Shown one piece after another: positions 15,234 to 61,265 of a stretch of DNA of 64,000 nt. This DNA is from Candidatus Marinacidobacterium sp. (GTDB taxonomy: Bacteria > Acidobacteriota > Vicinamibacteria > Marinacidobacterales > Marinacidobacteraceae): NCBI GenBank assembly GCA_965204755.1, contig OZ242011.1, positions 3,296,001-3,360,000 of the forward strand, given 5' to 3'. The notes below the pieces were generated by a model, which saw nothing but the letters and a program-made list of their open reading frames with translations, did not search any database and was not told the DNA's origin. Every line of letters begins with the position of its first letter. The first letter of the stretch is position 1. Position numbers and translations under genes: made by a program.

Positions 15234-15307
15234 TACGCCTGGCAGGACTCGAACCTGCGACCTACGGATTAGGAATCCGTCGCTCTATCCGCCTGAGCTA
15301 CAGGCGC
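15234..15307 (-). tRNA. tRNA-Arg(CCT)
   Basis: GCGCCTG acceptor stem, TAGCTCAG D-arm, anticodon arm ACGGA-TTCCTAA-TCCGT, GGTTCGAGTCC T-arm; CCA not encoded. Confidence 0.95.
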
Positions 15308-20468: not shown

Positions 20469-21494
20469 ATGCGCGTTTCCCTCCTGCGTGTTCCCGCCTT
20501 CCCGCTGTTCGGCGTCCTTGTCGGCGTTCTGGTCGGCGCCCTCGCCGTCCTCGCAGCGGCCGCCGCCGCCCCGAGCCAGCCGCCCGCCTCCGCCGCCCCG
20601 CCGCCGCCCGCCGCGGGCGACCTCGAGCAGGAGCAACGGAAGACCACCGTCGGCGACCGGTTCAGTTTCGTGATCCGGGTGCCGAGCGTCACCCTCGATG
20701 TCGTCGTCTCCGACGAGCGCGGCCGGTTCGTGACCGGCCTCGGCCCCGCGGACTTCGTGGTGCTCGAAGACGGCCGACCCCAGGAGATCGAGTTCTTCAC
20801 CGCCGAACTCACCCCCGTGAGCAGCCTGCTGCTGCTCGACACCTCCGCCTCGGTCCGCTCCAGCCTCTCCGCCATCCAGACCGCCGCCTACCTGTTCCTC
20901 CGCACGATGGCCGACCGGGACCGGGCGCGGGTGGCCACCTTCAGCGAAGGCGTCCGCTTCGGCCCGCCCTTCCAGACCCGGATCTGGGACCAGGTGGCGA
21001 TGATCCGCGCCATGCGCCCGTTCGGGAAGACCGCCCTCTACGACGCCATCCTCACCGGCCTGCAGGAACTCTCGATCGTCGAGGAGCGGAAGGCGATGGT
21101 GCTGCTCTCCGACGGCGAGGACTCCGGCCGGGCGGCGAAGGGCAGCGTCAGCACCCGGGAACAGGCGCTCGAAGGCGCGCGCCTCTCCGAGGGCGCCATC
21201 TACACCGTCGGCTACACCGGCTGGAGCCCGGACGGCGGCGGCCGGCTGAACCGGGATTTCCTGGACGCGGTGGCGGAGCAGAGCGGCGGGCGCTCCTTCT
21301 ACCCGGAGGAGGTGGAGGAACTGCCCCGATACTTCCGGGAGATCCAGCACGAACTCCACCGGCAGTACCAAATCGCCTACCTCCCCTCCCGCGACCGCAA
21401 GGAAGGCGGCTGGCGCACCATCGAAGTCCGGGTCCGCGACCGCCCGGAACTCACCGCCCGCACCCGCAAGGGCTACTACGCCGCGCCGGGGTAG
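20469..21494 (+). CDS. VWA domain protein (Acidobacteria-type VWFA-related)
   Basis: VTLDVVVSDERGRFVTGLGPADFVVLEDG, MIDAS DTSAS, TALYDA, LSDGED, QYQIAY, RKGYYA. Confidence 0.85.
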   Translation: MRVSLLRVPAFPLFGVLVGVLVGALAVLAAAAAAPSQPPASAAPPPPAAGDLEQEQRKTTVGDRFSFVIRVPSVTLDVVVSDERGRFVTGLGPADFVVLEDGRPQEIEFFTAELTPVSSLLLLDTSASVRSSLSAIQTAAYLFLRTMADRDRARVATFSEGVRFGPPFQTRIWDQVAMIRAMRPFGKTALYDAILTGLQELSIVEERKAMVLLSDGEDSGRAAKGSVSTREQALEGARLSEGAIYTVGYTGWSPDGGGRLNRDFLDAVAEQSGGRSFYPEEVEELPRYFREIQHELHRQYQIAYLPSRDRKEGGWRTIEVRVRDRPELTARTRKGYYAAPG

Positions 21495-21559
21495 GGACGC
21501 CCGCGCGGCGCGGCGGATGGATGTCCGCGCCGCCGCCGCGCCCGGTCTCGACCGCCCTC

Positions 21560-21588
21560 TTGCGGCCGGGCGAGGCGCGGGCTAATCT
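21560..21588 (+). promoter_or_regulatory. sigma70-type promoter of RNA element 1
   Basis: TTGCGG-N17-TAATCT, 7 nt before GCACT. Confidence 0.55.
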
Positions 21589-21595
21589 TCCTACC

Positions 21596-21665
21596 GCACT
21601 TCCCCCCCTCGGGATCGTGTCCGGATCGGCAACCGGTTGCCTTTCTGGATACCCCGGGGGCGATT
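21596..21665 (+). ncRNA. putative structured RNA element, copy 1
   Basis: GCACTT-CCCTCGGG-ATC-GTGTCCGGA-TC-GGCAACCGGTTGCC-TT-TCTGGATAC-CCCGGGGG: three nested stems. Confidence 0.6.
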
Positions 21666-21935
21666 GCCTTGAGATGGCGGTTGCGCAATGCGGGTTCCGC
21701 GTCATCGGGGGGTGCTTCGCGGTCTCAGCCGGTCGAGGTTGAGCCTCGCTTCGGGTTTGGCGGCGGGACGAGGGGTTGCGCGTTCGACCCCGGCTCACCC
21801 CTTCGGGTCGAGCCTCCCAACCCGAGATGGCCGCTGCGGCGGCCGACCGGCCTCCGCCCGGTTCTCCGCGCTGGCCCGGCGGAGCCGCCCGAACACGCGG
21901 TGCGCGCCGGCGGCCGCCGGCGAGCCCCCGCGGGC

Positions 21936-21964
21936 TTGATGTCCGGGGAGGCTCTGGATAGCAT
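21936..21964 (+). promoter_or_regulatory. sigma70-type promoter of RNA element 2
   Basis: TTGATG-N17-TAGCAT, 8 nt before GCACT. Confidence 0.55.
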
Positions 21965-21972
21965 CCTCGCTC

Positions 21973-22037
21973 GCACTAACCCCCCCGGGGATTTCGTCTT
22001 GGGCGGCATTCGTCGTTCGTGGCGCCCCCGGGGCATT
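21973..22037 (+). ncRNA. putative structured RNA element, copy 2 (divergent sequence, same fold)
   Basis: GCACTAA, outer CCCCGGGG/CCCCGGGG, middle CGTC/GGCG, inner GGGCGGC-ATTC-GTCGTTC. Confidence 0.5.
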
Positions 22038-22096
22038 CGCGTTAAACGGGGCGCCTGCGCGTCCCGCTTCCCTGAACCCCCGCTAGTATTCCGACC

Positions 22097-22167
22097 GCAC
22101 TTAAGCCTCCCGGGATCGTGTCCAGATCCGGCAACCGGTGGCCGCTCCGGGCGCCCCGGGAGTGATC
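22097..22167 (+). ncRNA. putative structured RNA element, copy 3
   Basis: TAGTAT at 22084-22089, then GCACTTAA, outer CTCCCGGG/CCCGGGAG (compensatory change), GTGTCC/GGGCGC, inner CGGC..GCCG. Confidence 0.58.
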
Positions 22168-22385
22168 CTTCTCGTCGGGAGGTGGCCGCCGAGCGATGAG
22201 GCTCGGCGAGTCGAGCGGGTTCTGAGCGGAGTCAGGCGTTCCGGCGTTCGGCGTCGCCTCGCTCCGGCCGTCTCCGACCGTCGCTGCTCCGAGCGGTCGT
22301 ACCGGTGCCCCCGCCTGCGGGGCGCGTCCGGCCCTCGGGTTCTTCCCGGTGTCGGGGCGCCAACTGGACTGGGCCCACCACCGTC

Positions 22386-22414
22386 TTGACATCGCGGAGG
22401 GTGCCGTCTACTAT
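22386..22414 (+). promoter_or_regulatory. near-consensus sigma70 promoter of RNA element 4 / NYN gene
   Basis: TTGACA-N17-TACTAT, 7 nt before GCACT. Confidence 0.75.
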
Positions 22415-22421
22415 TCCGGTT

Positions 22422-22491
22422 GCACTTACCCCCCCCGGGATCGTGTCCTGATCGGCAACCGGTTGCCTTTCTGGATACCCCGGGGGCGATT
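22422..22491 (+). ncRNA. putative structured RNA element, copy 4
   Basis: nearly identical to copy 1: CCCCCGGG-ATC-GTGTCC-TGATC-GGCAACCGGTTGCC-TTTCT-GGATAC-CCCGGGGG. Confidence 0.6.
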
Positions 22492-22731
22492 CTCTTAACG
22501 GGGAGAGGGCGGCTGTCGGGCAAGCGGGTTCGGCGTCGTCGGGGGTGTTCTGAGCAGGCTCAGCCGGTCGGCGGCTGGGCGGCGCTGCGGATGTGGCGGT
22601 TGGGCGAGCACTTGCGAGTTCGTCCTTGGCTCGACCGGTCGGCCGGGCCGCGGATGTGACCTCGCGGGCCGCGTCGCGCGTTCGTCTCCTCCGCTGTCTC
22701 TCATCCTGTCGCGGATTCGCGCGGAGGGCTC

Positions 22732-23484
22732 GTGTACGAGACGGACCGGCATGGGGCGCGAGATGCCGCCCCGGATGACGAAGTGGATGATCGGTCCACT
22801 CGCCGCAACCGGGTCGGCGGTGTCGCCAGCGAAGTGTCGAACGCGTCCCTTCCGCCGCTGCCGCTTCAGCGAGCGGCCGTGTTCATCGATGGAAGCAACT
22901 GGTACTACGGACTCAGAGGAATCGGGGTTCGCAGCGGCCATCTCCATTATTCGGAAGTGGCTCGCAAACTCGCCTGCGGCCGGAATGTGTGCGCTGTCCG
23001 ATACTATGTCGGGAAAGTCACTACGCCTATCGCGACGGCCAAGGCGCAAGACGACTTCTTGGCGGCGCTGCGCGAGCAGGGAGTGCGTGTCTCTTTGGGC
23101 CGGATGCAGCGCAATCCCATGAGCCGGCGGGCCGCGGATGACCGGAGTCGGCTGGCTCGCGCCTTCGCGGATCGCGACCATGAGGTTCCGCCCGACCTGA
23201 TGCGAACGATCGACGCGTTCTGTCGCTCGCGGCCGCCCGAATACCGGGAGAAGCAGGTGGATACACGGATCGCGGTGGATCTCGTGGACCTGGCGCACCG
23301 AGACCGGTACGATGTGGCTTATCTACTCTCCGCAGACGCCGACTTCCTTCCGGCAGTCCAGGTAGCGCGTCGTCTCGGTAAGGGAGTGTTCGCTGTCGCT
23401 CCATCCGGAGGGGACGAACTCAAGGAGGCAGCGACCGGTTTCATAAAGGTCTCGGCAGACTGGTTCGAGGGCCTGTACGCCTGA
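22732..23484 (+). CDS. NYN domain (LabA/DUF88, PIN-fold) ribonuclease
   Basis: VFIDGSN, RYY, EKQVDTRIAVDL, LLSADADFLPAV..ARRLGK; acidic catalytic residues intact; the true start may be GTG 22834. Confidence 0.9.
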   Translation: MYETDRHGARDAAPDDEVDDRSTRRNRVGGVASEVSNASLPPLPLQRAAVFIDGSNWYYGLRGIGVRSGHLHYSEVARKLACGRNVCAVRYYVGKVTTPIATAKAQDDFLAALREQGVRVSLGRMQRNPMSRRAADDRSRLARAFADRDHEVPPDLMRTIDAFCRSRPPEYREKQVDTRIAVDLVDLAHRDRYDVAYLLSADADFLPAVQVARRLGKGVFAVAPSGGDELKEAATGFIKVSADWFEGLYA

Positions 23485-23736
23485 GTAGATCGCGGTTCTC
23501 GATGACTCATCGAGACGGCGCCGAGGTCGCGGTCGTCGGCAGGCGACGGATCGCAGACATAGGCCCGCGCTTAGCTCCGGGTGGCTCCCGTTCTCGCTGC
23601 GGCCGCGGAGGCGGGTGGATGCGTACGGGTCTCGGTATCGGAGGCGGATGAGCGCGTCCGGGCGGGGTGGTCGGATCTGTAGGCGGCAGGGCATACGATC
23701 TACCGGCGGCGGCGCATGCGGGGGGAGTTCGGGGTG

Positions 23737-24687
23737 ATGGATGCCCGGCGGGTGGTTCGGCGGTTGGTTCTCACCGGGGCGGCCGAGGAGGTCGTGGACC
23801 CGGGAGGCGGGTTCGCGGTGGCGGGGCGGGCCGGGGACACCGAGATCGCGGTGGCCGGGGGGCTGCCGCGGACGGCGGCGGCGCGGGCGCGGGGGCTCCG
23901 GGCCGCGTGGAGGCGGCGGGTGGGGAACACGCCGCGGACGCTCGTCCTGCTCGCGGATGATCTCGGTGGGGCTGCGTCCGTCCCGCGGGTGCTCGTCGCC
24001 GGGCCGGCGGAGGCCGACGCGGGGCCGTACTCGGTTCCGGCGGAAGCGCTGCTCGCCGCGGTGGAGGAGTACGCCGAGCGGCCCGACGGGGTGGGGCGGA
24101 TCCATGCGCTCTCGCGGCAGTTGGAGCGGCTCGCCGGCATCTGCGGCGCGCGGGCGCGGGCGCCCGAATCCGAAGACTCGTTGGAGCGGCTGCGCGGGAC
24201 GGAGTGGTGGGAGGGCGCGAGGGAGCGGACGGCCGCGATCCGGCCGGGCGACGGCTGGCGGGAGATCCTCGGCGCGCTCGGTTACCGGATCGAGCGGCGT
24301 CCGGTCGGGTACGCGCTGCGGAGCGGCGGCGGCGCGGTGGCCGCGGTCGTGATTCCCCGCCGCGACTCGGCCGAGTTCGACGCTTGGGACGACGGCCGTC
24401 CTCCCGAAGCGCGGCTCGCGGAACTGGCTCGCGCCGAGGGGGCGGGTCGCGGGATGTTCGCCGCCGACGACCGGCTGCGCCGGTTCCGGTTCGACGCGCC
24501 GGGCAGCGACGGCGATTGCGGGTGGATCGAACTCGACGCGACCGCGCTCGGCGAGGAGAATCGACCGTTCCTCGCCCTGCTCGCCGCGGACCCGCTCGAG
24601 GTCGCGACCGCTGACGGGCGTTCGGTCGAGCCCGGCGCGCTCGGCCTCGCGACGCGGGAAGTCGCGGCGTCGCCGGTTTCGGCGTGA
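23737..24687 (+). CDS. stand-alone paralog of the N-terminal ~300 aa of the downstream methyltransferase
   Basis: collinear similarity: WRRRVGN/WKQRVGN, GPYSVPA identical, RPPEARL/RPPEGRL, WIELDA..L.EE.RPFLAL. Confidence 0.72.
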   Translation: MDARRVVRRLVLTGAAEEVVDPGGGFAVAGRAGDTEIAVAGGLPRTAAARARGLRAAWRRRVGNTPRTLVLLADDLGGAASVPRVLVAGPAEADAGPYSVPAEALLAAVEEYAERPDGVGRIHALSRQLERLAGICGARARAPESEDSLERLRGTEWWEGARERTAAIRPGDGWREILGALGYRIERRPVGYALRSGGGAVAAVVIPRRDSAEFDAWDDGRPPEARLAELARAEGAGRGMFAADDRLRRFRFDAPGSDGDCGWIELDATALGEENRPFLALLAADPLEVATADGRSVEPGALGLATREVAASPVSA

Positions 24688-24720
24688 CGCGCCAGGCCGG
24701 AGGACACGGAGTTTCCGACG

Positions 24721-27700
24721 ATGGATGCTGAGCGGGTCGTCAGTACGCTGATCGGGGACGGGATCGCCGAGGAGGCGAAGCCGCAGGGGGAGTTCGTGCT
24801 GTCCGCGCGGATCGGCCGGACGGAGGTCAGCGTTGCCGGATCGCTCTCCGCGGCGTCGGCGGGCGCGAAGTTGCGGAGCCGGTGGAAGCAGCGGGTCGGG
24901 AACAGGCCGCTGAAACTGCTCCTGCTCGCGGATGTGTCGGGCGGCGACGACCGCGTCGTGGTCGTCGGCCCGTCGAAGGCCGACCAGGGGCCGTATTCCG
25001 TCCCGGCCACGGGGCTCTTGGAGAAACTCCGGGCGTTCGCCGATCGACCGGACAAGGGGGCGCGGCTGCGCTGGCTCACCCGCGAGTTGCAGCGGCTGGG
25101 TCTTTCCGGCATTCCCGGAGTTCTGGTGCGGGGTCTGCTGACCGAGCACACGCTGGAACGCTGGCGGGAGCGCGACTGGTGGGAGGGCGCGAAGCGGACG
25201 ACCGCCGCCGTCGGGTCGGGAGACACTTGGCGGGACCTCTTCGGCAAACTCGGCTACGAGTTGGAACAACAGCCGGAGGGCTACTTTCTGCGGGCCGGGG
25301 CGGCGCCGGTCGCGGCGGCGATCGCGTTCAGCGAGTCGGACCAGTTCGACCGCTTCGACGAAAACAACCGCCCGCCCGAGGGACGGCTCGCCGACCTGTG
25401 CGCGTCCGCGAACCTGCGCTACGGGATACTCGCGGCCCGCGGGAGGTTGCGCCTCTTCCGGTTCGATGCGCTGGACGGGAGCGGCGCCTCCGACTGGATC
25501 GAACTCGACGCCGCCGAACTCCGGGAAGAGGATCGGCCGTTCCTCGCCCTCTTCGCCTCCGAGTCGCTGGTTCCTGACGGTCGCTTCGATGCGGTGCTGA
25601 GCGACTCGCGCCGATACGGGGTGGAACTCTGGAAGCGGCTGGACAACCGCATCCGGGACCGCGCGCTCCCGGTGCTTGCCGAGGAGATGGAGGTCTGGGC
25701 GAAGGCAACCGGACTCGATCTGTCGGACCCGGCAGTCCGCAAGGACCTGGAACAGGCCTCCCTGACGCTGGCGTTCCGGCTGTTGTTCGTTCTCTACGCC
25801 GAGAGCGCCGGGTATCTGCCGATGAGCAACGCCGAGTACGAGGGTGCCAGTCTCACGAGACTCGTACGGGAAGCGAGGCGGACGAGGGATCGGCTCGACG
25901 ACAAGTCCACGGCGCTGTGGCTCCGGTTCGTGGTGCTGGTGCAGGCCATGCGCGGCGGCAACTCTGCCTGGAAGGTGCCGGCCTACAACGGAGCCCTGTT
26001 CTCCTCGGACGCTTTCCTCGGGGCGGAGACCCTGGAGCGCCTGTCGCTTCGGGATCCCGGGTTCGGCAGCGTCCTGACACTGCTCGGTTGGGACGAGAAG
26101 CACGATTGCGGCGTGGACTACTCCACCATCGAGATCGGCCATTTGGGACACATCTACGAGTCCCTGCTCACTCGGCAACTGACGCTGGCGCAGCGGGACC
26201 TGGTGTACGACGCGAAGAAGGACCGGTACCGCCCGCCGAAATTCAGCGAAGCCAGGGAGCCCGTCGTTTCCGCCGGGTCGCTGCTCTGGCAAACCCATCT
26301 CGGCGGAAGGAAGGCCGGGGGCGTGTACTACACCCCGTCCCCGCTGGTGCGGCACCTCGTTGAGCGGGCGGTCGCGCCGGCGTTCGAGCGGCACCTCGAC
26401 CAAGTGCGGAAGACGGCGGAGACCGACCCGGAGAGCGCCGCCGACCAGTTGCTCGATTTCGCCGTGCTCGACCCGGCGTGCGGGAGCGCCCACTTCCTCG
26501 TGGAAGTCTTGGATCGTCTCGCCGACTTGACGGCTCGCTTCCTCGGAAACCAGCCGCTCCCGGCGATCGCGGCGCGCATGGAGACTCTGCGCGCCGCCGC
26601 CGGAAGCGACAGCGGAATCCGGGACATGACGCTACTGCGCCGTCTTCTGCTGAAGCACTGCATCTACGGCGTGGATGTGAGTCCGATGGGCGTCGAGATC
26701 GCCACCCTGTCGCTTTGGTTGGCCGCGTTCGTGCCCGGTCTCTCGCTGTCCTACCTCGGGCGGAATGTCATTCGCGGAAACTCGCTGCTCGGAGTCGCCG
26801 ATCGGGAAACCGTGGTGAAGCCGCACGCGTTCGAGAGCGATGAACTCCGGGAAAGTCTGAAGAATGCAGCGGAGGCGGCCGCCGAGTTGGCTGACAATCC
26901 GGACCGGACTCCCGAGGAGTATGACCAGAGTTCGGCGGCGGACCATGCCGCCCAAACGTTCGCGGCGGGTGCGAAGCGACTCTTCGATCTGTGGACTGCC
27001 GAGGCGGAGGTTTCGGACTGCCGGAGGTATCTTGGGGGTCGGGGCAAAGCGATTCTCGACGACGATCTCGACGATCGTGGTCGGGAGCTTGTACCAGCGG
27101 CCGCCGACTACGCCCGGCGATGGGATGTCCTTCACTGGCCGGTCGCCTTCCCCCATGTCTTCGCGCGGGAGCGGCCGGGATTCGACGCTGTTGTCGGCAA
27201 TCCTCCGTGGGAAGAGGTCACTGTCGAGGAACTCGACATCTATGTGATGGTGAGTCCCGGACTGAACACGCTTCCGGAGGATCAGCGGCTCCTGGCGGTC
27301 GCCGAACTCGACGAACAGGATCCGGCGCTGCGGTCGCGCGTTCTTCGGGAGAAGGGCCGGGCGAGGACTCAGAGGCGGGGACTCGGTGTCGGAGAATACG
27401 AAGGCTCCCCCGGCGATCCAGACCTCTACAAGTACTTCTGCCAGCGCTACCGGAAACTGCTGCGGGCCGACGGGGCGTTCGGTGTCGTCCTGCCGAGGAC
27501 GGCTTTCAGCGCCAAGGGGTCGGCGAAGTTCCGCGAGTGGCTCTACGGTCAGATCACGGTAGATCGGGTCGATTTCTTGGTGAACACGAAGCAGTGGGCC
27601 TTCGACAGCACGCCGAAGTACACGATCGCCCTGTTGGCGGCACGGAACCGGAGGTCGCCACCGAGTCACCGGGCGGAGTTCGCGGGCACGGCTGATTCGC

Positions 27701-28644
27701 CCGAGGCCTGGAGGAGGCAAGTGTCGCAAGATGGCGTCGGTCTTGCGGCAGGGTGCTTCGGCCCCGAATGGGAGACGCCCCTCGTTCGTTCGCAGGACGA
27801 AGCGGATCTGCTTGAACGAGTTCGTCGCGGTTCGCGATTCCCGCTGGGGTCGGGAAGTCGGTGGTGGTGCTTTCCCGTGGCCGAACTTCATGAAACGAAC
27901 GACAGACCCCTTTGGCTGGCGCAGACCTCCGGTCTTCCGCTCTGGAAGGGTGCGAGTTTCGGACCGTACGAGCCAAGAGGGACGGACGGCCGTCATTTCC
28001 CGCAGGAGGAGGAGTTGCTCCGCCGCAAACTCCACAAGCGCTCGCCGGGCAGCGGCTCACTGCTTGGACGAAAGTCCAAAACAGCACGCCAAGCCGCGGT
28101 GCGGAAGGAGGTGAGACGCGCCCGCGTCGCCTTTCACGATGTAGCCCGTGCGACGGACCCGCGCACCGTAGTCGCCTGCCTGATCCCCCCTACAGTTCTC
28201 CTGACCAACACGGCGCCCTATCTCGCGTTCCTTCACGGTGCGGAGAGGGAGCAGGCAGCCTGCCTGGGTGTCCTGAACAGTCTTCCGTTCGATTGGCAGG
28301 CCCGGCGGTTCGTCGAACTCCATGTGAACTTTTTCATCCTTGAGGGATTGATCGTTCCGGACATGGAGGAGAGCGACTTCGAGGTCGTTGCCGGGGCGTC
28401 GGCGCGGCTTTCCGCCGTGGACGACCGTTTCGCGGACTTTGCGAAGGCTACCGGGGTCAAGTGCGGTCCCGTCGAGGAGGATGAACGGAGCGAATTGCGA
28501 GCGGAGATCGATGCCCGCGTCGCCCGCGCCTGGAAACTCGACGAGAACGACCTCGACCTGATGTTCGCCGATTTCAGCGAGTCGGCGGTGTCGGCGGACT
28601 ACCGGGAAGCCGTGCGAATCCGTCTGCGGGCGTTGAACGCCTGA
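24721..28644 (+). CDS. type IIG/Eco57I-like N6-adenine DNA methyltransferase (PglX/DrmMI-like architecture)
   Basis: RLLFVLYAE, YNGALF, LGHIYESLL, GVYYTP, motif I VLDPACGSAHF, IYGVD, motif IV VGNPPW, C-terminal TRD LNSLPFDW. Confidence 0.9.
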   Translation: MDAERVVSTLIGDGIAEEAKPQGEFVLSARIGRTEVSVAGSLSAASAGAKLRSRWKQRVGNRPLKLLLLADVSGGDDRVVVVGPSKADQGPYSVPATGLLEKLRAFADRPDKGARLRWLTRELQRLGLSGIPGVLVRGLLTEHTLERWRERDWWEGAKRTTAAVGSGDTWRDLFGKLGYELEQQPEGYFLRAGAAPVAAAIAFSESDQFDRFDENNRPPEGRLADLCASANLRYGILAARGRLRLFRFDALDGSGASDWIELDAAELREEDRPFLALFASESLVPDGRFDAVLSDSRRYGVELWKRLDNRIRDRALPVLAEEMEVWAKATGLDLSDPAVRKDLEQASLTLAFRLLFVLYAESAGYLPMSNAEYEGASLTRLVREARRTRDRLDDKSTALWLRFVVLVQAMRGGNSAWKVPAYNGALFSSDAFLGAETLERLSLRDPGFGSVLTLLGWDEKHDCGVDYSTIEIGHLGHIYESLLTRQLTLAQRDLVYDAKKDRYRPPKFSEAREPVVSAGSLLWQTHLGGRKAGGVYYTPSPLVRHLVERAVAPAFERHLDQVRKTAETDPESAADQLLDFAVLDPACGSAHFLVEVLDRLADLTARFLGNQPLPAIAARMETLRAAAGSDSGIRDMTLLRRLLLKHCIYGVDVSPMGVEIATLSLWLAAFVPGLSLSYLGRNVIRGNSLLGVADRETVVKPHAFESDELRESLKNAAEAAAELADNPDRTPEEYDQSSAADHAAQTFAAGAKRLFDLWTAEAEVSDCRRYLGGRGKAILDDDLDDRGRELVPAAADYARRWDVLHWPVAFPHVFARERPGFDAVVGNPPWEEVTVEELDIYVMVSPGLNTLPEDQRLLAVAELDEQDPALRSRVLREKGRARTQRRGLGVGEYEGSPGDPDLYKYFCQRYRKLLRADGAFGVVLPRTAFSAKGSAKFREWLYGQITVDRVDFLVNTKQWAFDSTPKYTIALLAARNRRSPPSHRAEFAGTADSPEAWRRQVSQDGVGLAAGCFGPEWETPLVRSQDEADLLERVRRGSRFPLGSGSRWWCFPVAELHETNDRPLWLAQTSGLPLWKGASFGPYEPRGTDGRHFPQEEELLRRKLHKRSPGSGSLLGRKSKTARQAAVRKEVRRARVAFHDVARATDPRTVVACLIPPTVLLTNTAPYLAFLHGAEREQAACLGVLNSLPFDWQARRFVELHVNFFILEGLIVPDMEESDFEVVAGASARLSAVDDRFADFAKATGVKCGPVEEDERSELRAEIDARVARAWKLDENDLDLMFADFSESAVSADYREAVRIRLRALNA

Positions 28645-28657
28645 TCGTCGTCGCGCG

Positions 28658-31600
28658 GTGAGTCGGCGTCCGCTTCCGCCGCCCCCCGCGGCCGTGTCGG
28701 TGCGTCCGACCCTGCTCGACAACCTCGAATTCGGGACCCACCGAGTCGGACTCGGCGCTCTCGCCTCCGACGATCCGAAGGACGCTCCGGTGTCCGTCGC
28801 CACCGGGTATGTGAATCTCGGGGGGCTCGCGGCGCTCGCGCAGGTCACGGAGACGCCGGCACGGCCGGTGCGGCTCCTGATCGGGGTCGCGCCTCCGCCC
28901 GGCGGCGGAGGAGCGCGGGCTTTGGTCAGGAAGTTCTTCGACGAGGCGCTTCAGGAGGTCCGCCGCGACCGGAACTTCGGGCGCTTTCCGCCGAGCCGGG
29001 CGAGGAGGAGTATCGGCCCGGTGGCCGAGTGGCTGAAGCGGCCCGAGGTCGAAGTCCGGCGGTACCAGGGAGCGTTCCTCCACGGGAAGGCGTACTTGTT
29101 CGGCGACGCCGGCAACCCGCGGGCGGCGCTCGTGTCCTCGGCGAACCTGACCGCCGCCGGGATGGAGAAGAACCTGGAACTCGGCTTGGTCGAGTACGGC
29201 CCGGACACCGTGGCCAAGGCCATCCGCTGGTTCGACCGCCTGTGGAAGTCCGACCAGGCCCGGGACTTCAAGGAGACGCTGGAGAAGTTGCTGGGCGCGG
29301 ACCCGCTCCTCGACGCGCTGGAAGATCCGCGGGCGATCTACCTCCGGATCCTGCTCGAGTACTTCGGGGACGAGTTGGAGAAGGATCCGCCGCGGCCGCA
29401 GGCGGTCACCCTGGCCGACTTCCAGTGGGACGGGTTCCGGCGGGCGCTCCGGATCCTGGACAAGTGCGGCGGCGTGATCTACGCGGACGGCGTCGGCACC
29501 GGCAAGACGGAGATCGGGCTGGCGCTGCTGGAGCGGTACGCGGTCGGGGAAGGCAAACACGCGCTGGTGGTGGCGCCGGCGCAACTGGTGAAGACCTGGC
29601 AGGACCGGATCGACGAGGGAAACCTGCCGGGCCGGGTCGTTTCCTTCCACCAGTTGGCCGACGACCGGCGACTGAACCCGGAGGGGCGCGGCCGACACCT
29701 CCCCGCCGACAAGGACACCTACCGGCTGATCGTCGTGGACGAAGCGCACGCCTTCCGCAATCCGGACACCGGTTGGCACCGGGCGCTCTCCCGGCTGCTC
29801 GGCGGGAAACCCAAGCACGCGGTCTTCCTCACGGCCACGCCGATCAACAACGGCCTGCCGGACCTCTTCCACCTGGTGATGGCCTTCGCCCGCCACGACG
29901 CGGCGTTCGCCGAGCACGGGATCCGCTCGCTGCGGGCGCTGTTCCGGTCGGCGGGGGCGTTCAGCCGGGACGGGGAGAACCTGGACGCGGACCGCCTGTT
30001 CCCGCTCGCCGACCTGGTGAGCGTCCGGCGCGACCGGGCGTTCATCGAGAAGCACTACCCGGACGCCAAGTTCCCGGACGGGAGGCCGCTGCGCTTCCCG
30101 AAGCCTCGACTCGAGACGGCGCGCTACGCGATAGACGAGGTATGGCCCGGGCTGGTCGCCGAGATCACTGACGCCGTGAACGAACTGACCCTCGCCCGCT
30201 ACCGCCCCGAGCACTACGCGGTCGGTGAGGCGAGGGAAGAGGACCGCAACGATACGGGGATCACCGGCCTGCTGCGCTCGGCGATCCTCAAGCGGTTCGA
30301 GTCCTGCCACGAGTCCTGCCGCCTGACCGTGGAGCGCATGGAGAAGGCGCACGAGGCGTTCCTCGCGGCCTGGGATGCCGGGTTCGTTCCCGGCTCCGAG
30401 GCGCTGCGGGAAATCGTGGAGGCGGACCTCGACGAGACGGCGGCGGCCGCGTGGCTCGGCGACGAGATCGAAGACGGACGGAGCCGACCGGTCGCGGACT
30501 TCGACGCCCTGCTTCGGCAACAGGTGGCGGACGACCTGGAGCGCCTGCGGAGGTTCCACCGGCGCCTGGAAGAGACCCGGCAGGGCGACGATCCGAAACT
30601 CCGGCTGCTGGTCCGGCTGATCGAGGAGTCGCCGTCGGAAAAGGTCGTCGTCTTCTCCGCGTTCGCCGATACGGTGCGCTATCTCGACGAAAAACTCCCG
30701 GAGGTCGTGGACGGACGGCGCCGCGCAGTCGTGATCGGCGAGGAGACCGCGCCCGACGAGCGGATGCGCCGCCTCGAGAGTTTCGCCCCGAAGAGCGTCG
30801 TCGGCGAGGATCACGAACTCCCGGACGAAGTGCAGGAAGTGGATCTCCTGCTCAGCAACGATGTCCTCTCGGAAGGGCAGAACCTGCAGCAGGCGGGAGC
30901 GGTCGTCAGTTACGACTTCCCGTGGAACCCGCAGCGGGTCGTCCAGCGCTACGGGCGGGTCATCCGGCTCAAGAGTCCGCACGACGAGGTGTATCTCACG
31001 ACCATGCTGCCGGCGCCGGGAGACCTCGAACTCCTGCTGAAACTCGAGGCGGCCATCCGGCGCAAACTGACCGCGGCGCGGCTCTACGGCATGGATGTGG
31101 AGGTGGTCGAAGGCGGGGCGCCGGAAGCGGAGTTGATGTCCTTCGCGGAGCGGCTCGCCGCCCACGACCCGACCCTGCTCCGCGAATCCGTCGGATCCGG
31201 CATCGGGGCGGCGTTCAGCGGGGAATCGCTGCGCGCGGACTTCCATCGCGCCCTCATGGAAGGCGAACTGCGGAAACTGCGCAACCTGCCTTGGGGCGTG
31301 GGCGCCGCGTTCCGCCTGCCGGCGCCGGGCCGGTCCGGAGCGGCGACGGCAGCCCCCGGCGAATCGTGGGCCCGGACGCCGGGAGTCTTCTTCGCCTGCC
31401 GGACGAAGCGGGACGACCGCTATTGGCGTTTCGTACCGCTCGAGGGTTCGGGGACCGGGCCGGAACCGGAGGCGCTCCACCTGCGGCGGATCGCGCCGCC
31501 GCGAGGAGTGTCCGGTCTGACCTCCCTGCCGGAGGAGGCGGACCTGGAACGGGCTTGGGAAACCGCCGCGGAGTCCATCGTGAAGGAGCACAACGAACTC

Positions 31601-31939
31601 GCCGAGGCGAGTTTGGAGGAGGCGTCGGTGGGGCCGCGGCAGGCGTGGGCGCTCGGCGTGCTCGACGACCCCGACCACGGCCTCTCCGACGAGGAAGCCG
31701 ACCATGCTTCGGAGGCGCTCCGCGTGGGCCGCAGCCAGTCCATCCGCCGCGAGTTGGGCCGGATCGAGAAGGAACTCGAGGACAAGGCCATCTCCCTCTC
31801 CGAGGCCGCCGGCCGCATCGTGGCCCTCGTGAAGTCGGAGGGCCTCCGCCCGGTGGAGCCCCCCAAACCCCTCGAACCCATCGAAGGCGAACAAGACTTG
31901 GGCGTCGTCTGCTGGATGGCCCTCCTTCCTTCGGCGTAG
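28658..31939 (+). CDS. SNF2-family helicase with N-terminal PLD-like nuclease domain
   Basis: VATGY, FLHGKAY...SSANLT (PLD-like); ADGVGTGKT, VDEAH, TATPINN, SEGQNLQ, PWNP..VVQRYGRV. Confidence 0.9.
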   Translation: MSRRPLPPPPAAVSVRPTLLDNLEFGTHRVGLGALASDDPKDAPVSVATGYVNLGGLAALAQVTETPARPVRLLIGVAPPPGGGGARALVRKFFDEALQEVRRDRNFGRFPPSRARRSIGPVAEWLKRPEVEVRRYQGAFLHGKAYLFGDAGNPRAALVSSANLTAAGMEKNLELGLVEYGPDTVAKAIRWFDRLWKSDQARDFKETLEKLLGADPLLDALEDPRAIYLRILLEYFGDELEKDPPRPQAVTLADFQWDGFRRALRILDKCGGVIYADGVGTGKTEIGLALLERYAVGEGKHALVVAPAQLVKTWQDRIDEGNLPGRVVSFHQLADDRRLNPEGRGRHLPADKDTYRLIVVDEAHAFRNPDTGWHRALSRLLGGKPKHAVFLTATPINNGLPDLFHLVMAFARHDAAFAEHGIRSLRALFRSAGAFSRDGENLDADRLFPLADLVSVRRDRAFIEKHYPDAKFPDGRPLRFPKPRLETARYAIDEVWPGLVAEITDAVNELTLARYRPEHYAVGEAREEDRNDTGITGLLRSAILKRFESCHESCRLTVERMEKAHEAFLAAWDAGFVPGSEALREIVEADLDETAAAAWLGDEIEDGRSRPVADFDALLRQQVADDLERLRRFHRRLEETRQGDDPKLRLLVRLIEESPSEKVVVFSAFADTVRYLDEKLPEVVDGRRRAVVIGEETAPDERMRRLESFAPKSVVGEDHELPDEVQEVDLLLSNDVLSEGQNLQQAGAVVSYDFPWNPQRVVQRYGRVIRLKSPHDEVYLTTMLPAPGDLELLLKLEAAIRRKLTAARLYGMDVEVVEGGAPEAELMSFAERLAAHDPTLLRESVGSGIGAAFSGESLRADFHRALMEGELRKLRNLPWGVGAAFRLPAPGRSGAATAAPGESWARTPGVFFACRTKRDDRYWRFVPLEGSGTGPEPEALHLRRIAPPRGVSGLTSLPEEADLERAWETAAESIVKEHNELAEASLEEASVGPRQAWALGVLDDPDHGLSDEEADHASEALRVGRSQSIRRELGRIEKELEDKAISLSEAAGRIVALVKSEGLRPVEPPKPLEPIEGEQDLGVVCWMALLPSA

Positions 31940-32062
31940 CAGGGGCGGTTCGCTCCCTTCCGGGCAGAACGGAGGAACGCGCGGCGGGCCCGGCTGACGG
32001 TCGCGACTGCCGGGAAGCCGCGGGGCCTGCTCGGTATGGAGAGGCCGGCTAGACTGGTTCCC

Positions 32063-32485
32063 ATGCGCCCGGAAATCGGTTCGGGGCCGTTCCGACCCGG
32101 AACCGGCCGCCCCCCGCCGTATCTCGCCGGGCGGGAGGAAGAGCAGGACCTCTTCCTGATGCTGCTCGCCGACTTGAAGCCGTTTTCGACCGGCAGCGGG
32201 ACGACTACTACGCCGACCGCCACGACGAACTGGAAACTGCGGCTGCTGCGCCCGGCGCGAGAGGTCGCGGAGGCATTCGAGTCGCAACCACTCCTCTCCG
32301 GCGAGGCACTGGAGGCCGCCATCCGGCGAGGTTTCGGCGAGGACGCCGGCGACGACCAAGTGGACGCGACGGCGCAGCAGTTCCGCCATCTCGGCTACAT
32401 CTGGCGGGCCGGAACCCGTCGGCCGTGGGAACCGGGCATTCCCAGCCTGATGGACTACATCCTCCGGGAAGTCCCCGCGCCGTAA
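32063..32485 (+). pseudogene. internally deleted duplicate of the downstream AAA ATPase
   Basis: N-terminal GPFRPGTGRPPPYLAGRE and C-terminal HLGYIWRAGTRR.WEPGIPSLMDYILREVP match 32599-33720; Walker A/B region missing; short out-of-frame stretch. Confidence 0.8.
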
Positions 32486-32598
32486 GCCGGCGAGCCGCCT
32501 CCGGAATCTCTGCGGTGCGGGAAGCGCTCCACGACCCCCGAGAACCACGAGGGATTCGCCGCCGCTCGGCGCCGGGACTTCCGGCTAAACTGGTTCTC

Positions 32599-33720
32599 GT
32601 GCGCTCTGAAATCGGTGGGGGGCCGTTCCAGCCCGGTTCCGGCGTACTCCCGCCGCACCTCGCCGGGCGGGAGCGGGAGCAGGACCTCTTCCGGACGCTG
32701 CTCGCCCGACTCGACCGCGGCGAGGCGCCGCCCGGAGAAGTCATCCTCTACGGGCCGCGCGGCAACGGCAAGACGGCGCTCCTCGCGTGGGTCAGCGAGT
32801 TTGCGAGCGAGTCCACCGGCGTGGATGTCGAGGAACGCACGCCGTCGGAGTTCGATTCCCCGGCCGGACTGGCCGAGTTGTTGTTGCCGAAGTCCTGGTG
32901 GAAGACCGTCGGCCCCGAGGAGGTCGGCGTTCGGGGGATCACTTGGCGCCCGGGCCGGCGATCGGCAGCCCCGACCCCCGCCGAAGTCCTCGCTCTTCGG
33001 GCCGGGAGGAAACCGTTGGTCGTGCTTCTCGACGAAGCGCACACTCTCGACCCCGAAGTCGGCCGCGCTCTCTTGAACGCGGCGCAGAAGGTCCGGCGCT
33101 CGGCGCCGTTTCTCCTGGTGTTGGCGGGAACTCCGAACCTTCGCGACCACTTGGCGTCCATGGGCGCCTCTTTCTGGAACCGCGGCCGGAAGTTGCGGAT
33201 CGGACGCCTGGACGAGAGCGCCGCGGCGGAGGCGATACGGGAGCCGCTGGCGGCCGAAGACATCACCATCGCGGACGATGCGTTGGAGCACTTGGTTCGC
33301 GACAGCCACGGGTATCCGTTCTTCGTCCAACTCTGGGGCGAAGCGGTGTGGGCTCGCGCCGTCGAGACCTCACGGCAACAGGTCGTCTCCGAGGATGTGC
33401 GCGCCTGCCAAACCGTTTTCGACGAGCAGCGGGACGACTACTACGCCGACCGTCACGACGAATTGGAAGAACTGCGGCTGCTGCGCCCGGCGCGGGCGGT
33501 CGCGGAGACCTTCGAGTCGCGTCCCGCCCTCTCCGGCGGCGAACTGGAGGCCGCCATCCGGCGAGGTTTCGGCGAGGACGCCGGCGATGACGAAGTGAAC
33601 GCGGCGGCGCAGCAGTTCCGCCATCTCGGCTACATCTGGCGGGCCGGAACCCGTCGGCTGTGGGAACCGGGCATTCCCAGCCTGATGGACTACATCCTCC
33701 GGGAGGTCCCCCCGCCATAG
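32599..33720 (+). CDS. AAA_16-like ATP-binding protein
   Basis: PF.PG....P.HLAGRE, YGPRGNGKT, LLDEAH, LAGTP, SHGYPFFVQ. Confidence 0.85.
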   Translation: MRSEIGGGPFQPGSGVLPPHLAGREREQDLFRTLLARLDRGEAPPGEVILYGPRGNGKTALLAWVSEFASESTGVDVEERTPSEFDSPAGLAELLLPKSWWKTVGPEEVGVRGITWRPGRRSAAPTPAEVLALRAGRKPLVVLLDEAHTLDPEVGRALLNAAQKVRRSAPFLLVLAGTPNLRDHLASMGASFWNRGRKLRIGRLDESAAAEAIREPLAAEDITIADDALEHLVRDSHGYPFFVQLWGEAVWARAVETSRQQVVSEDVRACQTVFDEQRDDYYADRHDELEELRLLRPARAVAETFESRPALSGGELEAAIRRGFGEDAGDDEVNAAAQQFRHLGYIWRAGTRRLWEPGIPSLMDYILREVPPP

Positions 33721-33740
33721 AATTCCGGCGGGAGGCGGCG

Positions 33741-35156
33741 ATGTTGACGGGGATGCGCCTGCGGGGCTTCAAGTCGTGGAGGGATACGGGCGACATCGAG
33801 TTACGGCCGATCACCGCGTTCTTCGGCCTGAACGGTTCCGGGAAGACGAGTCTCCTGCAGGCGCTGCTGCTGCTGAAACAGACGGCGGAATCGCCGGGCC
33901 GCGGGCAGGTCTTCCACTTCGGGGACGGTCGGTCGGCGGTGGACCTCGGCGACTTCACCGATGCGGTGCATCGGCGCGATGCCGATGCCGCGCTGGGCGT
34001 TTCCCTCGATTGGACCGCGGACTCCGAGGTACGCGTTCGCGACGGCGACTTGCGCGAAGTCGCCGTCTCGGATTCCCTCGGGTTCTCGGTGGTCGCGGCG
34101 CGGGAAGGCGAGAGATCGCCGGAGACGACCGTGCGCGAGATTACTCATCGCGTCGGGAACTCCTGCTTCGGGATGCGGCGCGGGAAACGGGGTTACCGGT
34201 TGTTCGCCGATGCCGGGGAGTTTCGCTTCCGCAGGCGGCGGCGCCATGCGGAGACTCTTCCCCCGCCGGTGTCCTGCTACAGGTTTCCGGCCGCTTCTCG
34301 CCAGGTGTTCGAGAACGCCGACTGCCTCTCCGCTCTCGAGCGTCCCCTGGAGCGGCAGTTGGACCGCCTCTACTACCTGGGGCTCTCGAGGGCGCGTCCG
34401 GAGCGACGGTATGTTTGGGTCGGCGCCCGCCCGCCGGATGCGGGGCGGTCGGGGGAGTTGGCCGTGGCGGTCCTCCTGGCGGCGCGCGCGGACGCAGACG
34501 GGATCGCGACGGAGCAGGGCGGGGACGGGCGCAGCCCGGAGGAGCAGGTGGAGCACTGGCTGCGGGAAATGGGCCTCGTCCATACCTTCCGCGTCGCGCC
34601 GCTGGTCCCGGGACTGTTCGAAGTGCTCGTTCGCCAGACGCCGCACTCGGCGGAAGTCCCGATCACCGGTGCGGGTTTCGGGGTCGCGCAGGCGCTTCCG
34701 GTGTTGGCGCTCTGCTTCCACGCCCCCGAGGGTTCCACCATCCTCCTCGAACAGCCGGAAACCCGACTGCATCCGTCGGCCCAGTCCGCGCTCGCCGACG
34801 CGCTCCTCGACGCGCGGCGGCGCCGGGGGATCCAGTTCCTGATCGAGAGCCACAGCGAGCACTTGCTGCGGCGGCTCCAGCGGCGCGTCTCCGATGAGAC
34901 TCTCTCCCACGAGGAAGTCGGGCTGTGGTATTGCGAGAACGAAGAAGGGGAGTCGTGCCTCACCGACTTGTCGCTGGATCGTTTCGGCGCCACCGGGTAT
35001 TGGCCGGAGGGGCTCTTCGGAGACCAGTTCCGCGAAGTGGTCGAGATCGCCGAGAATCGCCTGCGCCGGAGCATGGCCGAGGAAGAGAAGGAACCGGGCG
35101 CGCCCGCCTCGCCCTCGCGCCCGGAAGCGGGCGGGAGCGTGCCGGAAGCCGATTGA
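33741..35156 (+). CDS. AAA_21 ATPase with DUF3696-like C-terminus
   Basis: GFKSW, FGLNGSGKTS, GFGVAQALPV, LEQPETRLHP, IESHSEHLL, WPEGLF; GGAGG Shine-Dalgarno. Confidence 0.85.
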   Translation: MLTGMRLRGFKSWRDTGDIELRPITAFFGLNGSGKTSLLQALLLLKQTAESPGRGQVFHFGDGRSAVDLGDFTDAVHRRDADAALGVSLDWTADSEVRVRDGDLREVAVSDSLGFSVVAAREGERSPETTVREITHRVGNSCFGMRRGKRGYRLFADAGEFRFRRRRRHAETLPPPVSCYRFPAASRQVFENADCLSALERPLERQLDRLYYLGLSRARPERRYVWVGARPPDAGRSGELAVAVLLAARADADGIATEQGGDGRSPEEQVEHWLREMGLVHTFRVAPLVPGLFEVLVRQTPHSAEVPITGAGFGVAQALPVLALCFHAPEGSTILLEQPETRLHPSAQSALADALLDARRRRGIQFLIESHSEHLLRRLQRRVSDETLSHEEVGLWYCENEEGESCLTDLSLDRFGATGYWPEGLFGDQFREVVEIAENRLRRSMAEEEKEPGAPASPSRPEAGGSVPEAD

Positions 35157-35168
35157 GCGGCCGCGGCT

Positions 35169-35525
35169 CTACGCGCCGCTGCCGGTCAGGTCGCCGGACA
35201 GGCGGGCGCTCACCAGGCGGTTCAGGCTGACGCCTTCCTCCGCCGCCCGCAGTGCGAGAGCGCGGTGGACTTCCGGCGGGAGGCGGACGAGGAACCGGCC
35301 GCTGTAGCGCCGGTCGGCGAGCGGGGTCGGGATGTGTTCACCGTGCGCCTCCAGGTCGCGCAGAACCTCGGCCACCAGCGAGCGGATACCGGAGAAGGCG
35401 CGGTTCGGGGTGGCGGCGAGCCGACTGAGCGACGGGAACTCCAAGCAGAGCCCCACATGCTCCCCGTCCTCGGGAGACCAGGTGACGCGGTAGGTGTAGC
35501 GGTCGCGGATCGGCGGTCGGTTCAC
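35169..35525 (-). CDS. HicB family antitoxin (no adjacent hicA seen)
   Basis: YTYRVTWSPEDGEHVGLCLEFPSLS, YSGRFLVRLPPEVHRALALRAAEEGVSLN. Confidence 0.88.
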   Translation of the reverse strand: MNRPPIRDRYTYRVTWSPEDGEHVGLCLEFPSLSRLAATPNRAFSGIRSLVAEVLRDLEAHGEHIPTPLADRRYSGRFLVRLPPEVHRALALRAAEEGVSLNRLVSARLSGDLTGSGA

Positions 35526-47070: not shown

Positions 47071-47669
47071 ATCGAGATCCGCCTCGCCCCCGGCGCGGAG
47101 GCGGCGGCGGTGGCGGAGGCGCTCCGCGGGCGGTTCCCCGGCGTCCGGGTGGCCGAGCCCTCGACCCTGCGCCGGGAAGGCGCCGACCTCTTCGCCGCCT
47201 TCCGGCTGAACCTGACCGCGCTCTCCGCGGTCAGCCTGCTGGTCGGCGCGTTCCTGGTGTACGCCAGCGTCCGCGCCGGACTGGCCGCCCGGCGCCGCGA
47301 GATCGGGCTCTACCGGGCGCTCGGCGCCCCCGCCGGGAGCGTGGGCGCGGCGCTCGCCGGGGAAGTCGCGCTCGCCGCGCTGCTCGGCGGGGCGGTCGGG
47401 CTCCCGCTGGGGCTGGCCGCCGCCCGCGCCGGGCTCGACCGGGTGAGCGCCACGATGACCAACTTCTACCTCCTCGAGCGGATCGAGGAACTGGCGGTCA
47501 CTCCCGGCGTCCTCACCGCTTCGCTCGCGGTCGGCCTCGCCGCCGCGCTGGCCGGCGCCTGGCCGGAGATCCGCTCGGAGATCCGCCGGCCCCCGGTCTC
47601 GCTGCTCGCCCCGGGGCGCGAGCCGCCCGGCGGCGGCCGCCGGCCCTACGCCGCCGCGGCGTTCGGCGT
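47071..47669 (+). repeat. ~600-bp direct repeat, right copy (target duplication)
   Basis: appears identical to 44560-45158. Confidence 0.92.
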
Positions 47670-61238: not shown

Positions 61239-61265
61239 CGCCGGAGCGCTTCTCGTCGCGGGGCG

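Follow-up and report, generated by a model that had tools for sequence, protein, structure and literature searches.

A covarying hairpin RNA linked to a clade of NYN ribonuclease genes as a candidate attenuator and antitoxin

The DNA analyzed here, referred to as the window, is a stretch of 64,000 nucleotides from Candidatus Marinacidobacterium sp. (contig OZ242011.1 of assembly GCA_965204755.1). Between the end of a VWA gene at position 21494 and an open reading frame on the plus strand which codes for a NYN (LabA/DUF88, PF01936) protein (22732..23484) there is a gap of 1,237 nt. A first-pass annotation had described four elements starting with GCACT at positions 21596, 21973, 22097, and 22422, and indeed all four are present and lie within this gap, their starts being irregularly spaced by 377, 124, and 325 nt. 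Seven open reading frames within the gap gave no match to Pfam. The defence-like island reported to follow the NYN gene could also be confirmed. It extends over 23716..35525 on the plus strand and comprises a type IIG restriction–modification gene (as a partial duplicate and in full), a PLD-SNF2 helicase, AAA ATPases, one of them HEC-03B-like, and HicB on the minus strand; further partial tandem duplicates of similar divergence (68%) are also found there.

The NYN protein has 250 amino acids and shares the position of its start methionine with its closest homologs. The NYN domain, recognized with an E value of 2e-22 and 80.8 bits (Pfam cut-off 24.2), is the only Pfam domain of the protein, and a ToxN/CptN/TenpN-type or HEPN (Abi_2) domain was not found in it. 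The structural model (pLDDT 93.8) gave 2qip and the MARF1 NYN domain (PIN-like fold) as top Foldseek matches, and no ToxN/CptN/TenpN structure is among the matches listed. The acidic site consists of D53, D177, D202, and D204. In the conservation alignment of 39 sequences, whose numbering is shifted by 35 relative to the protein, the last three are invariant and D53 is at least 90% conserved, in agreement with the earlier statement that the protein keeps its acidic motifs (IDG, EKxVD, and SADxD). In addition there is a helical insertion at residues ~132–165.

Over the whole genome of 3.98 Mb, the four elements are the only nhmmer matches (E values between 6e-21 and 8e-13, obtained partly by construction), the next-best match elsewhere having an E value of 0.37; a second NYN gene of the same genome (L020) shows no match to the motif. 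With the model R2, which was built without the window's own copies, these four are also the top four matches in the 64 kb (copy 2, 45.4 bits; copy 4, 35.5; copy 3, 24.9; copy 1, 24.4), followed by a match with 12.5 bits. The model R1, trained on 70 loci and dominated by another sub-family, detects only copies 2 and 4 in the window. All four elements had been described as folding into the same three nested stems. This fold, with the pairings GTGTCC/GGATAC and GGCAA/TTGCC, holds for copies 1 and 4 only (folding z-scores −3.4 and −4.0). Copy 3 (z −1.2) pairs GTGTCC with GGGCGC; its outer stem carries a compensatory change from C-G to U-A, and the changes in its middle stem keep the pairing. Copy 2 (z −1.3) has a different inner hairpin, an AUUU bulge and a canonical CUAACCC head, and is the copy closest to the family consensus.

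The element of ~70 nt, which had been taken as the repeat unit, turned out to be part of a larger unit consisting of a promoter, the element and up to ~250 nt of downstream leader. Each element begins 7–8 nt past its own −10 box, and in three of the four cases there is a TTG −35 box. Reading the sequence, unit 1 starts with a promoter-like site at 21560..21588 (TTGCGG, 17 nt, TAATCT; absent from the list of our consensus promoter scan). Motif copy 1 (21596..21667) follows 7 nt on and then a diverged duplicate (21668..21914, 59–69% identity) of the long NYN 5′ leader, which can be aligned with the real leader right up to where the NYN start codon stands. A six-frame search of the gap gave no NYN coding remnant. 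Unit 2 has a promoter-like site at 21936..21964 (TTGATG, 17 nt, TAGCAT), likewise read from the sequence, in front of copy 2 (21973..22040; 27.6 bits with R1). For unit 3 we could read a −10 box (TAGTAT, 22084..22089) and no recognisable −35 box; copy 3 (22097..22169) is followed by a diverged leader duplicate (22170..22376) with 59–65% identity to units 1 and 4. Unit 4 has a promoter-like site (22386..22414; TTGACA, 17 nt, TACTAT; 10/12 consensus), the one site found by the consensus scan as compared with 0.1 ± 0.3 in shuffled sequences. Copy 4 (22422..22493) lies in the leader of the NYN gene itself, whose remainder (22494..22731, ~240 nt) is unusually long, the family median from the motif end to the IDG codon being 36 nt. 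All units and leaders are on the plus strand.

All four window copies have only 2–3 U in their 7-nt tails (copy 1, two; copy 4, three), and a weak terminator site at 22468–22486 is at chance level. Copies 1 and 4 are identical at 67 of 70 core positions as compared with 194 of 306 (about 63%) in their flanks (Fisher p 6e-9), which could reflect gene conversion or selection at a time when each copy had its own gene. As far as can be judged from the sequence, the window units are whole duplicated promoter–leaders with weakened U-tracts, unlike a type III array with a single promoter. DNA contigs from four runs (80% likeness) cover this stretch with joints 21500 to 21972, 22045 to 22420, and 22237 to 22862; these joints are hints only, being compatible with a different arrangement of units in related strains, and the contigs possibly belong to other organisms.

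The motif was then found next to NYN genes across many phyla. It is located directly upstream in 94 of 103 related NYN loci (at least 33% identity) and in 26 of the 35 among them that were held out of training; the loci are related to each other and these counts are therefore not independent. By inspection L174 alone among the 103 has no motif nearby. At distant loci head and hairpin occur in 52 of 61 upstream segments as compared with 6 of 51 downstream controls. The hairpin covaries: 11/12 and 8/13 pairs are changed on both sides, a result reached by 0 of 500 shuffles and with far lower values for slid controls. The stem pairing is kept across the family while the stem sequence is not, and the apical loops differ freely. 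G-U pairs exceed A-C pairs (25 vs 8), which fits an RNA transcribed from the plus strand. One alignment, A5, was left out because two L101 rows were misaligned in it. A promoter-like site of the sigma-70 type is present at 60 of 101 loci and in 2% of the control windows. By comparison the predicted parts of the family show the order sigma-70-type promoter, unpaired UAAYYCC head, hairpin, U-tract, and NYN start codon.

Besides this usual form several other arrangements occur. Two head-plus-hairpin units with different stems share one leader at 10 of the 61 loci, the first unit mostly being without a U-tract. Between two and four promoter–RNA units are found at the window locus and at L101, L115, L104, L141, and L175, and L163 has 4.1 tandem copies of 74 nt behind one promoter-like site. 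At L036 an intact NYN gene is embedded in an operon and the only complete unit lies downstream on the opposite strand. The motif occurs quite often where an intact NYN is lacking (6 of 18 strong family matches). No conserved protein partner is found beside the NYN gene across the loci; among the 51 neighbours with a Pfam annotation, 21 were classified manually as defence, toxin–antitoxin or mobile genes. The plasmid NYN genes L244 and L245 (25–26% identity) have the promoter–leader–terminator layout and no R2 match. The phage collection contained no NYN relative. A viral pattern scan matched 32 times, never beside an intact NYN; on inspection two of these matches proved to be true copies, one at L194 next to a truncated NYN start and one at L214 without NYN, and the rest are unspecific. 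A phylum-wide RNA search gave one match in 151 genomes, without an adjacent NYN and in a context like that of an ordinary terminator; this search is uninformative because only 38 candidates per genome were scored and the window genome itself was missed.

Rfam 15 at gathering score found two tRNAs only in the 64-kb window, four matches, all at chance level, over 21400–23700, and nothing relevant over 12 homolog loci; the abiF motif RF03085 did not match the window or these 12 loci. The open literature searched gave no NYN–RNA pairing and no match to the motif. The hairpin family is thus apparently new to description, though it may already have been listed elsewhere.

The locus had been compared to type III toxin–antitoxin systems, and with ToxIN, CptIN, and TenpIN it does share a repeated structured RNA ahead of a predicted endoribonuclease (PMC5086642). 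These systems, as far as described there, have near-identical tandem repeats with a single promoter and one terminator and pseudoknotted monomers. The window locus, however, has irregular spacing, a promoter per unit, decayed U-tracts, another toxin family and a nested hairpin, the latter predicted with folding tools that give nested structures only. Tandem repeats behind a single promoter-like site were seen only in L163, and the usual form of the family is a single promoter–hairpin–terminator leader. Judged from its predicted layout this form is closer to AbiF/RCd22 than to ToxIN. In the AbiF systems, too, a promoter, one or two hairpin motifs, a terminator and an RNase gene are found with no protein antitoxin, the stem pairing outweighs the stem sequence, and a short terminated RNA and read-through are expected (PMC12373285), although the window terminator is weak. 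RCd22 of C. difficile has two abiF motifs (PMC12373285), comparable to the two-unit NYN leaders, and for AbiF binding and neutralisation by the RNA are reported (PMC12373285, PMC12737573). The differences are that the AbiF toxin is a HEPN protein and the window protein NYN/PIN-like, that the head UAAYYCC is conserved at the 5′ side, and that the window has four separately promoted units.

The protein itself shares fold and acidic site with NYN.COG1432/LabA/DUF88 proteins (PF01936; 2qip, MARF1 NYN), which are abundant in bacteria and listed as "function unknown", the available text mentioning no RNA partner (PMC5499597). The window clade differs from other LabA/DUF88 proteins by the helical insertion and by the leader RNA, for which no model match was found upstream in 29 other PF01936 loci. 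It also resembles HEC-09 (PADLOC PDLC04163), a single-gene NYN in defence loci (10.1101/2024.01.29.577857); the HEC-09 profile matches the window NYN with an E value of 4.7e-23 in two stretches, the best covering only positions 94–176 of 203. When cloned with its putative native promoter HEC-09 gave no phage defence in E. coli, and the words "non-coding" and "ncRNA" occur 0 times in the available text of that paper (10.1101/2024.01.29.577857).

The first-pass annotation had regarded the elements as RNA partners of the nuclease in the role of antitoxin, sensor or guide scaffold. The comparative data (linkage to NYN across phyla, covariation, an own promoter) uphold a structured RNA tied to NYN; a guide scaffold is unsupported. 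We see about even chances that the predicted leader RNA, which belongs to a single mobile clade of NYN ribonucleases, binds NYN and serves as attenuator and antitoxin. Most transcripts would then end at the hairpin and yield a short stable RNA, and those reading through would be the NYN mRNA. NYN would contact the junction of head and stem, and the RNA would both curb NYN synthesis and keep the RNase inactive, as RCd22/AbiFr does with AbiF. When the RNA supply fails, for example by transcription shut-off by a phage or loss of the island, NYN would be freed. At the window locus the extra promoter–motif units would stem from tandem duplication of the 5′ end of the gene and may be retained as additional RNA sources or binding sites. 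The two-motif leaders, the L163 array and the antisense unit of L036 together suggest a protein-bound RNA that is able to act in trans; L036 is one instance only, and its unit might be a terminator put to another use. Against this reading count the lost head A of copy 1, unit 3 without a −35 box, and the lack of phage defence by HEC-09. Since the U-tracts of the window have decayed more read-through is to be expected, and with the few U in all tails discrete short RNAs are not assured. Furthermore, the partial duplicates in the island and the NYN start-codon remnants after the extra units of L175 mean that the extra copies may be relics.

We think it possible, though unlikely, that the RNA acts in cis only: NYN would recognise its own leader at the junction of UAAYYCC and stem and cleave or block it, the RNA being substrate or operator and the upstream copies relics or decoys. 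In E. coli, the leaders of rnc and rne take part in a feedback loop of this kind on the own mRNA. The motif typically lies 20–71 nt ahead of the IDG codon and its head is single-stranded and conserved in sequence like a cleavage site. The leader-like extent of unit 1, the remnants in L175, two complete leader–NYN units in tandem in L021 and the result with HEC-09 would also fit. However, some intact NYN genes have a stand-alone unit with its own promoter on their downstream side or in antisense orientation (L036, L003/G014, L004/G008), and in L036 this position makes attenuation in cis impossible. The core shared by copies 1 and 4 is much better conserved than the sequence on either side of it, and the promoter–terminator layout yields an excess of free RNA whatever its main role.

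It seems rather improbable that the hairpin is a plain attenuating terminator which keeps a costly nuclease low and has no contact with NYN, the extra copies being neutral and homogenised by conversion. A GC hairpin with a U-tract (median 6 U in 8 positions, 80 sequences) does have the shape of an intrinsic terminator, and GGGGG or GGAG is found right behind the U-tract in several loci. The head would then have to be conserved for a host-side cause such as pausing, pairing with the ribosome-binding site or a host RNA-binding protein; its U (100%) and A (97%) are, however, conserved in very different hosts. The head also precedes the first hairpins without a U-tract and is thus kept independently of termination, and the motif was not seen ahead of the 29 other NYN genes.

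A mobile palindrome of the REP/MITE kind inserted four times ahead of NYN is very improbable and largely refuted: orphan copies without NYN nearby exist (G011, G019), but the motif is restricted to one locus in the genome, is always headed by a promoter and strand-specific, and adjoins an intact NYN or start remnant in 14 of 18 strong family-wide matches. A CRISPR-like array with the repeats as scaffold, the intervening DNA as guides and an RNA-guided NYN can hardly be entertained, for although repeated hairpins adjoin an RNase and AbiF-type systems have been called ancestors of Cas13 (PMC12737573), the DNA between the repeats shows mutual homology as well as homology to the 5′ leader and is irregular in length, unlike unique spacers of similar length between regular repeats, and in most of the family there is just one unit.

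Returning to the attenuator and antitoxin reading, we put it at just below an even chance that these loci represent a widespread class of RNA antitoxins new to description, with a PIN/NYN-fold toxin and a minimal antitoxin made up of UAAYYCC and hairpin, the dose being tuned by multiplication of units. If true, a large branch of LabA/DUF88 proteins of "function unknown" would be assigned to defence or to the maintenance of islands, and this would add a new protein fold to the RNA-neutralised RNase toxins, which as described so far fall into the ToxN/CptN/TenpN and HEPN (AbiF) groups (PMC5086642, PMC12373285, PMC12737573). With a PIN/NYN-fold example, RNases under RNA control would have arisen independently once more, which matters because AbiF has been described as an ancestor of Cas13 (PMC12737573). 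On the weaker reading the hairpin would still be a candidate for a new RNA family and for the site recognised by an uncharacterised nuclease, and a covarying RNA linked to one NYN clade offers a direct and cheap handle on the function and control of NYN.COG1432 proteins.

The VWA-domain gene ending at 21494 and the NYN gene (22732-23484) are separated by a gap of 1,237 nt, in which four related elements, read from the sequence, begin with GCACT at 21596, 21973, 22097 and 22422. All four share an outer C-rich/G-rich stem with a short bulge, so that this part of the three-stem fold proposed in the first-pass annotation stands, whereas its exact middle and inner stems are found only in copies 1 and 4. 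The predicted folding is significant for copy 1 (z -3.4) and copy 4 (z -4.0) and falls short of significance for copy 2 (z -1.3) and copy 3 (z -1.2), whose stem differences preserve the pairing, including one change from C-G to U-A and one swap from C-G to G-C. In copies 1 and 4 the inner hairpin (21628-21641 and 22454-22467) forms a perfect 14-nt palindrome, which might also function as an operator in the DNA or as a self-complementary loop. Because a TANNNT box can be read 7-8 nt 5′ of each GCACT and a TTG hexamer lies 17 nt beyond this box in units 1, 2 and 4 (a unit being promoter, element and downstream leader), GCACT is likely the transcription start; a consensus scan also listed the promoter-like site of unit 4. 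The NYN leader in the window is long, and the U-tracts of all four copies are weak (2-3 U of 7, compared with mostly 4-7 in the homologs).

We fetched 160 loci (L numbers) around relatives of the NYN gene. Upstream of nearly all of them the same order is found: promoter, short leader, unpaired head, hairpin, U-tract and start codon. A model of this leader motif, R1, was trained on 70 loci with the window excluded. Among the 103 loci that have 110 nt of upstream DNA and an identity of 33% or more, R1 matched directly upstream and on the sense strand in 94; of the 35 loci held out of training it matched 26. Inspection of the nine loci missed by R1 showed copies farther upstream in L101 and L115, variant hairpins in L052, L066, L069 and L177, an inverted unit in L036 and L146, and no motif in L174. 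In 100 of 101 loci the motif ends 20-71 nt (median 36) before the codons of IDG, one of the acidic motifs of NYN, and promoter-like sites were found in 60 of 101 loci versus 2% of 1,718 control windows. In 61 more distant loci a simple scan for head plus hairpin detected one or more units in 52 of the upstream segments versus 6 of 51 downstream controls; on inspection, four of its single matches (L036, L044, L051, L071) proved not to be the motif.

The head has the consensus U-(A)-A-Y-Y-C-C, with U in 100% and A in 97% of the sequences of alignment A4. Stem covariation is seen at 11 of 12 pairs in A4 and 8 of 13 in a second alignment, A7 (0 of 500 shuffles; slid controls much lower), and since both alignments consist of related sequences and were made to fit the structure, this is to be taken as support and not as a p-value. 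G-U pairs outnumber A-C pairs 25 to 8 and 42 to 22. A second model, R2, for which 35 copies from the nearest sub-family were used and the window's copies left out, ranked the four elements highest over the 64 kb (45.4, 35.5, 24.9 and 24.4 bits; next match 12.5). Outside these four, blastn, nhmmer and R1 found no further element in the 3.98-Mb genome, and upstream of 29 other PF01936 genes of the same phylum R1 and R2, which are biased to GC-rich forms, gave no match.

Some leaders deviate in form. One sub-family (L022-L047, L122-L180) has an extra 5′ hairpin between promoter and head, often capped with UACG-, UUCG- or GAAA-type loops like a stabilised small RNA. L071, L085 and L088, which may be archaeal, have AT-rich NYN leaders with TATA-like boxes and without a -35 box, and head and hairpin are kept. 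Two distant plasmid NYN genes, L244 (2330-2500) and L245 (1550-1680), come from Marinobacter and from an IncN plasmid, the latter with close copies on numerous plasmids of enterobacteria. They have in common a conserved promoter-leader-terminator that differs from the one above and may represent a second family of NYN leaders, present in cultured hosts.

Judged from the alignments, the repeated unit in the window is the entire leader. The alignment of units 1 and 4 spans about 370 nt, beginning at the promoter and reaching the site of the NYN start codon; unit 3 can be aligned over about 290 nt. Between units 1 and 4 the element is identical at 67/70 positions and the flanks at 28/46, 87/126 and 79/134 (Fisher p 6e-9); for units 3 and 4 the corresponding values are 53/67 and 101/162 (p 0.014). 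No NYN coding remnants were detected in the 1,237-nt gap. These comparisons show that the motif was multiplied here by duplication of the leader. Several units also occur in L115, L104 and L175 (three each) and in L101 and L141 (two each). Every unit of L175 has its own promoter, and since its extra units run into the first NYN codons this locus shows that they arose by duplication of the 5′ end of the NYN gene. L163 has 4.1 tandem 74-nt copies of 99% identity, and in ten of the 61 more distant loci a single leader holds two head-plus-hairpin units whose stems differ (11 were called; L086 was mis-called and dropped). Complete units lie 3′ of intact NYN genes in L003 and L004, and in L036 antisense to an intact, operon-embedded NYN gene.

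The NYN protein matches PF01936 (80.8 bits) and its predicted structure is confident (pLDDT 93.8), matching 2qip and the MARF1 NYN domain. We found 118 homologs, the closest named locus being L101 (59%) from Ca. Marinacidobacterium sp. (genus of Acidobacteriota), and a profile search gave 97 clusters with an E-value of at most 1e-30. The acidic residues noted earlier as catalytic motifs are invariant or nearly so among 39 aligned sequences. In PADLOC the protein matches HEC-09, an NYN candidate for which 10.1101/2024.01.29.577857 reports no defence in E. coli. The island also has the defence-like character first ascribed to it: 3′ of NYN follow a type IIG restriction-modification gene, a PLD-SNF2 helicase, ATPases and HicB. 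ORF 23716-24687 partially duplicates the 5′ part of the type IIG gene that comes next, at 68% identity (aligned stretches 23875-24596 and 24850-25568). The AAA ATPase gene at 32036-33720 has a partial duplicate upstream (82-91% identity), and about five related copies stand in tandem at G000:C1, a contig of the window's own genome, about 549000-555000, with further paralogs scattered. The ATPase at 33711-35156 matches PADLOC HEC-03B (E 9e-113), with HicB following it on the opposite strand. Elsewhere in the window there are a 601-nt exact direct repeat (44559-45159 and 47070-47670), diverged short direct repeats of 86-138 nt (60799-61243) and two tRNA genes (15234-15307 and, on the minus strand, 58453-58524), neither directly flanking the island.

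In 62 loci one upstream and one downstream ORF were chosen by length, a noisy procedure in GC-rich DNA. A Pfam match was obtained for 51 of the 124 ORFs, of which 21 are restriction-modification, TA, Fic, TIR, transposase or phage genes by manual classification without matched control. No conserved partner gene was found among these neighbours, and thus nothing points to a protein antitoxin.

The comparison as a whole shows a predicted structured RNA motif that is promoter-headed and linked to NYN, and this supports the core of the first-pass annotation. The likeness to type III TA systems proposed there holds for the repetition of the motif upstream of NYN; the toxin family and the single-promoter tandem array of ToxIN, CptIN and TenpIN (PMC5086642) are absent, and the locus is not a member of these systems. 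It is a member of NYN.COG1432, which PMC5499597 lists as of unknown function. Comparison with Rfam 15, as had been suggested, gave no matching family. We found no NYN-RNA pairing in the literature covered; the word NYN is absent from the main text of PMC5737381 and from one supplement of PMC8632094.

The nearest working model is RCd22-AbiF of C. difficile, where, according to PMC12373285, the RNase gene is preceded by two hairpin motifs and a terminator, the motifs work in cis and in trans, and stem pairing is required while stem sequence is not. The window locus has neither the HEPN toxin nor the abiF RNA motif RF03085 and is not an AbiF member, yet it may work in an AbiF-like manner. Premature termination would then yield a short RNA, the head-stem junction would be recognised by NYN, and the leader RNA would restrict NYN synthesis and inhibit NYN activity. 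We give this mechanism an even chance. Feedback in cis only, with the extra copies as relics, is a possible, less likely reading: the island holds other partial duplicates of 68% identity, copy 1 has lost the conserved A, and HEC-09 was inactive. That hairpin and U-tract form a plain attenuator we regard as unlikely, and that the four elements are a guide array as scarcely credible.

A search of 28 genomes of the family with R2 gave 25 matches. Among the 18 of at least 33 bits, 12 adjoin an intact NYN gene, two precede an apparent remnant of the NYN start and four have no NYN gene in the locus, one of these near a contig end. A dispersed REP/MITE scattered genome-wide without NYN linkage was rejected, the matches being mostly NYN-associated and the window's copies confined to a single locus; a MITE is thus highly improbable. 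Matches without an intact NYN gene show that, as far as can be read from these genomes, leaders outlive their genes. In one genome (G002) a 90-nt variant of the motif (L233, 1501-1590) precedes a distant NYN sub-family, and another (G018) carries the same unit without the gene (L234, 1501-1590). Because the R2 match in G002, a weaker one, directly precedes this far more distant NYN sub-family, the link between motif and NYN may extend beyond this clade.
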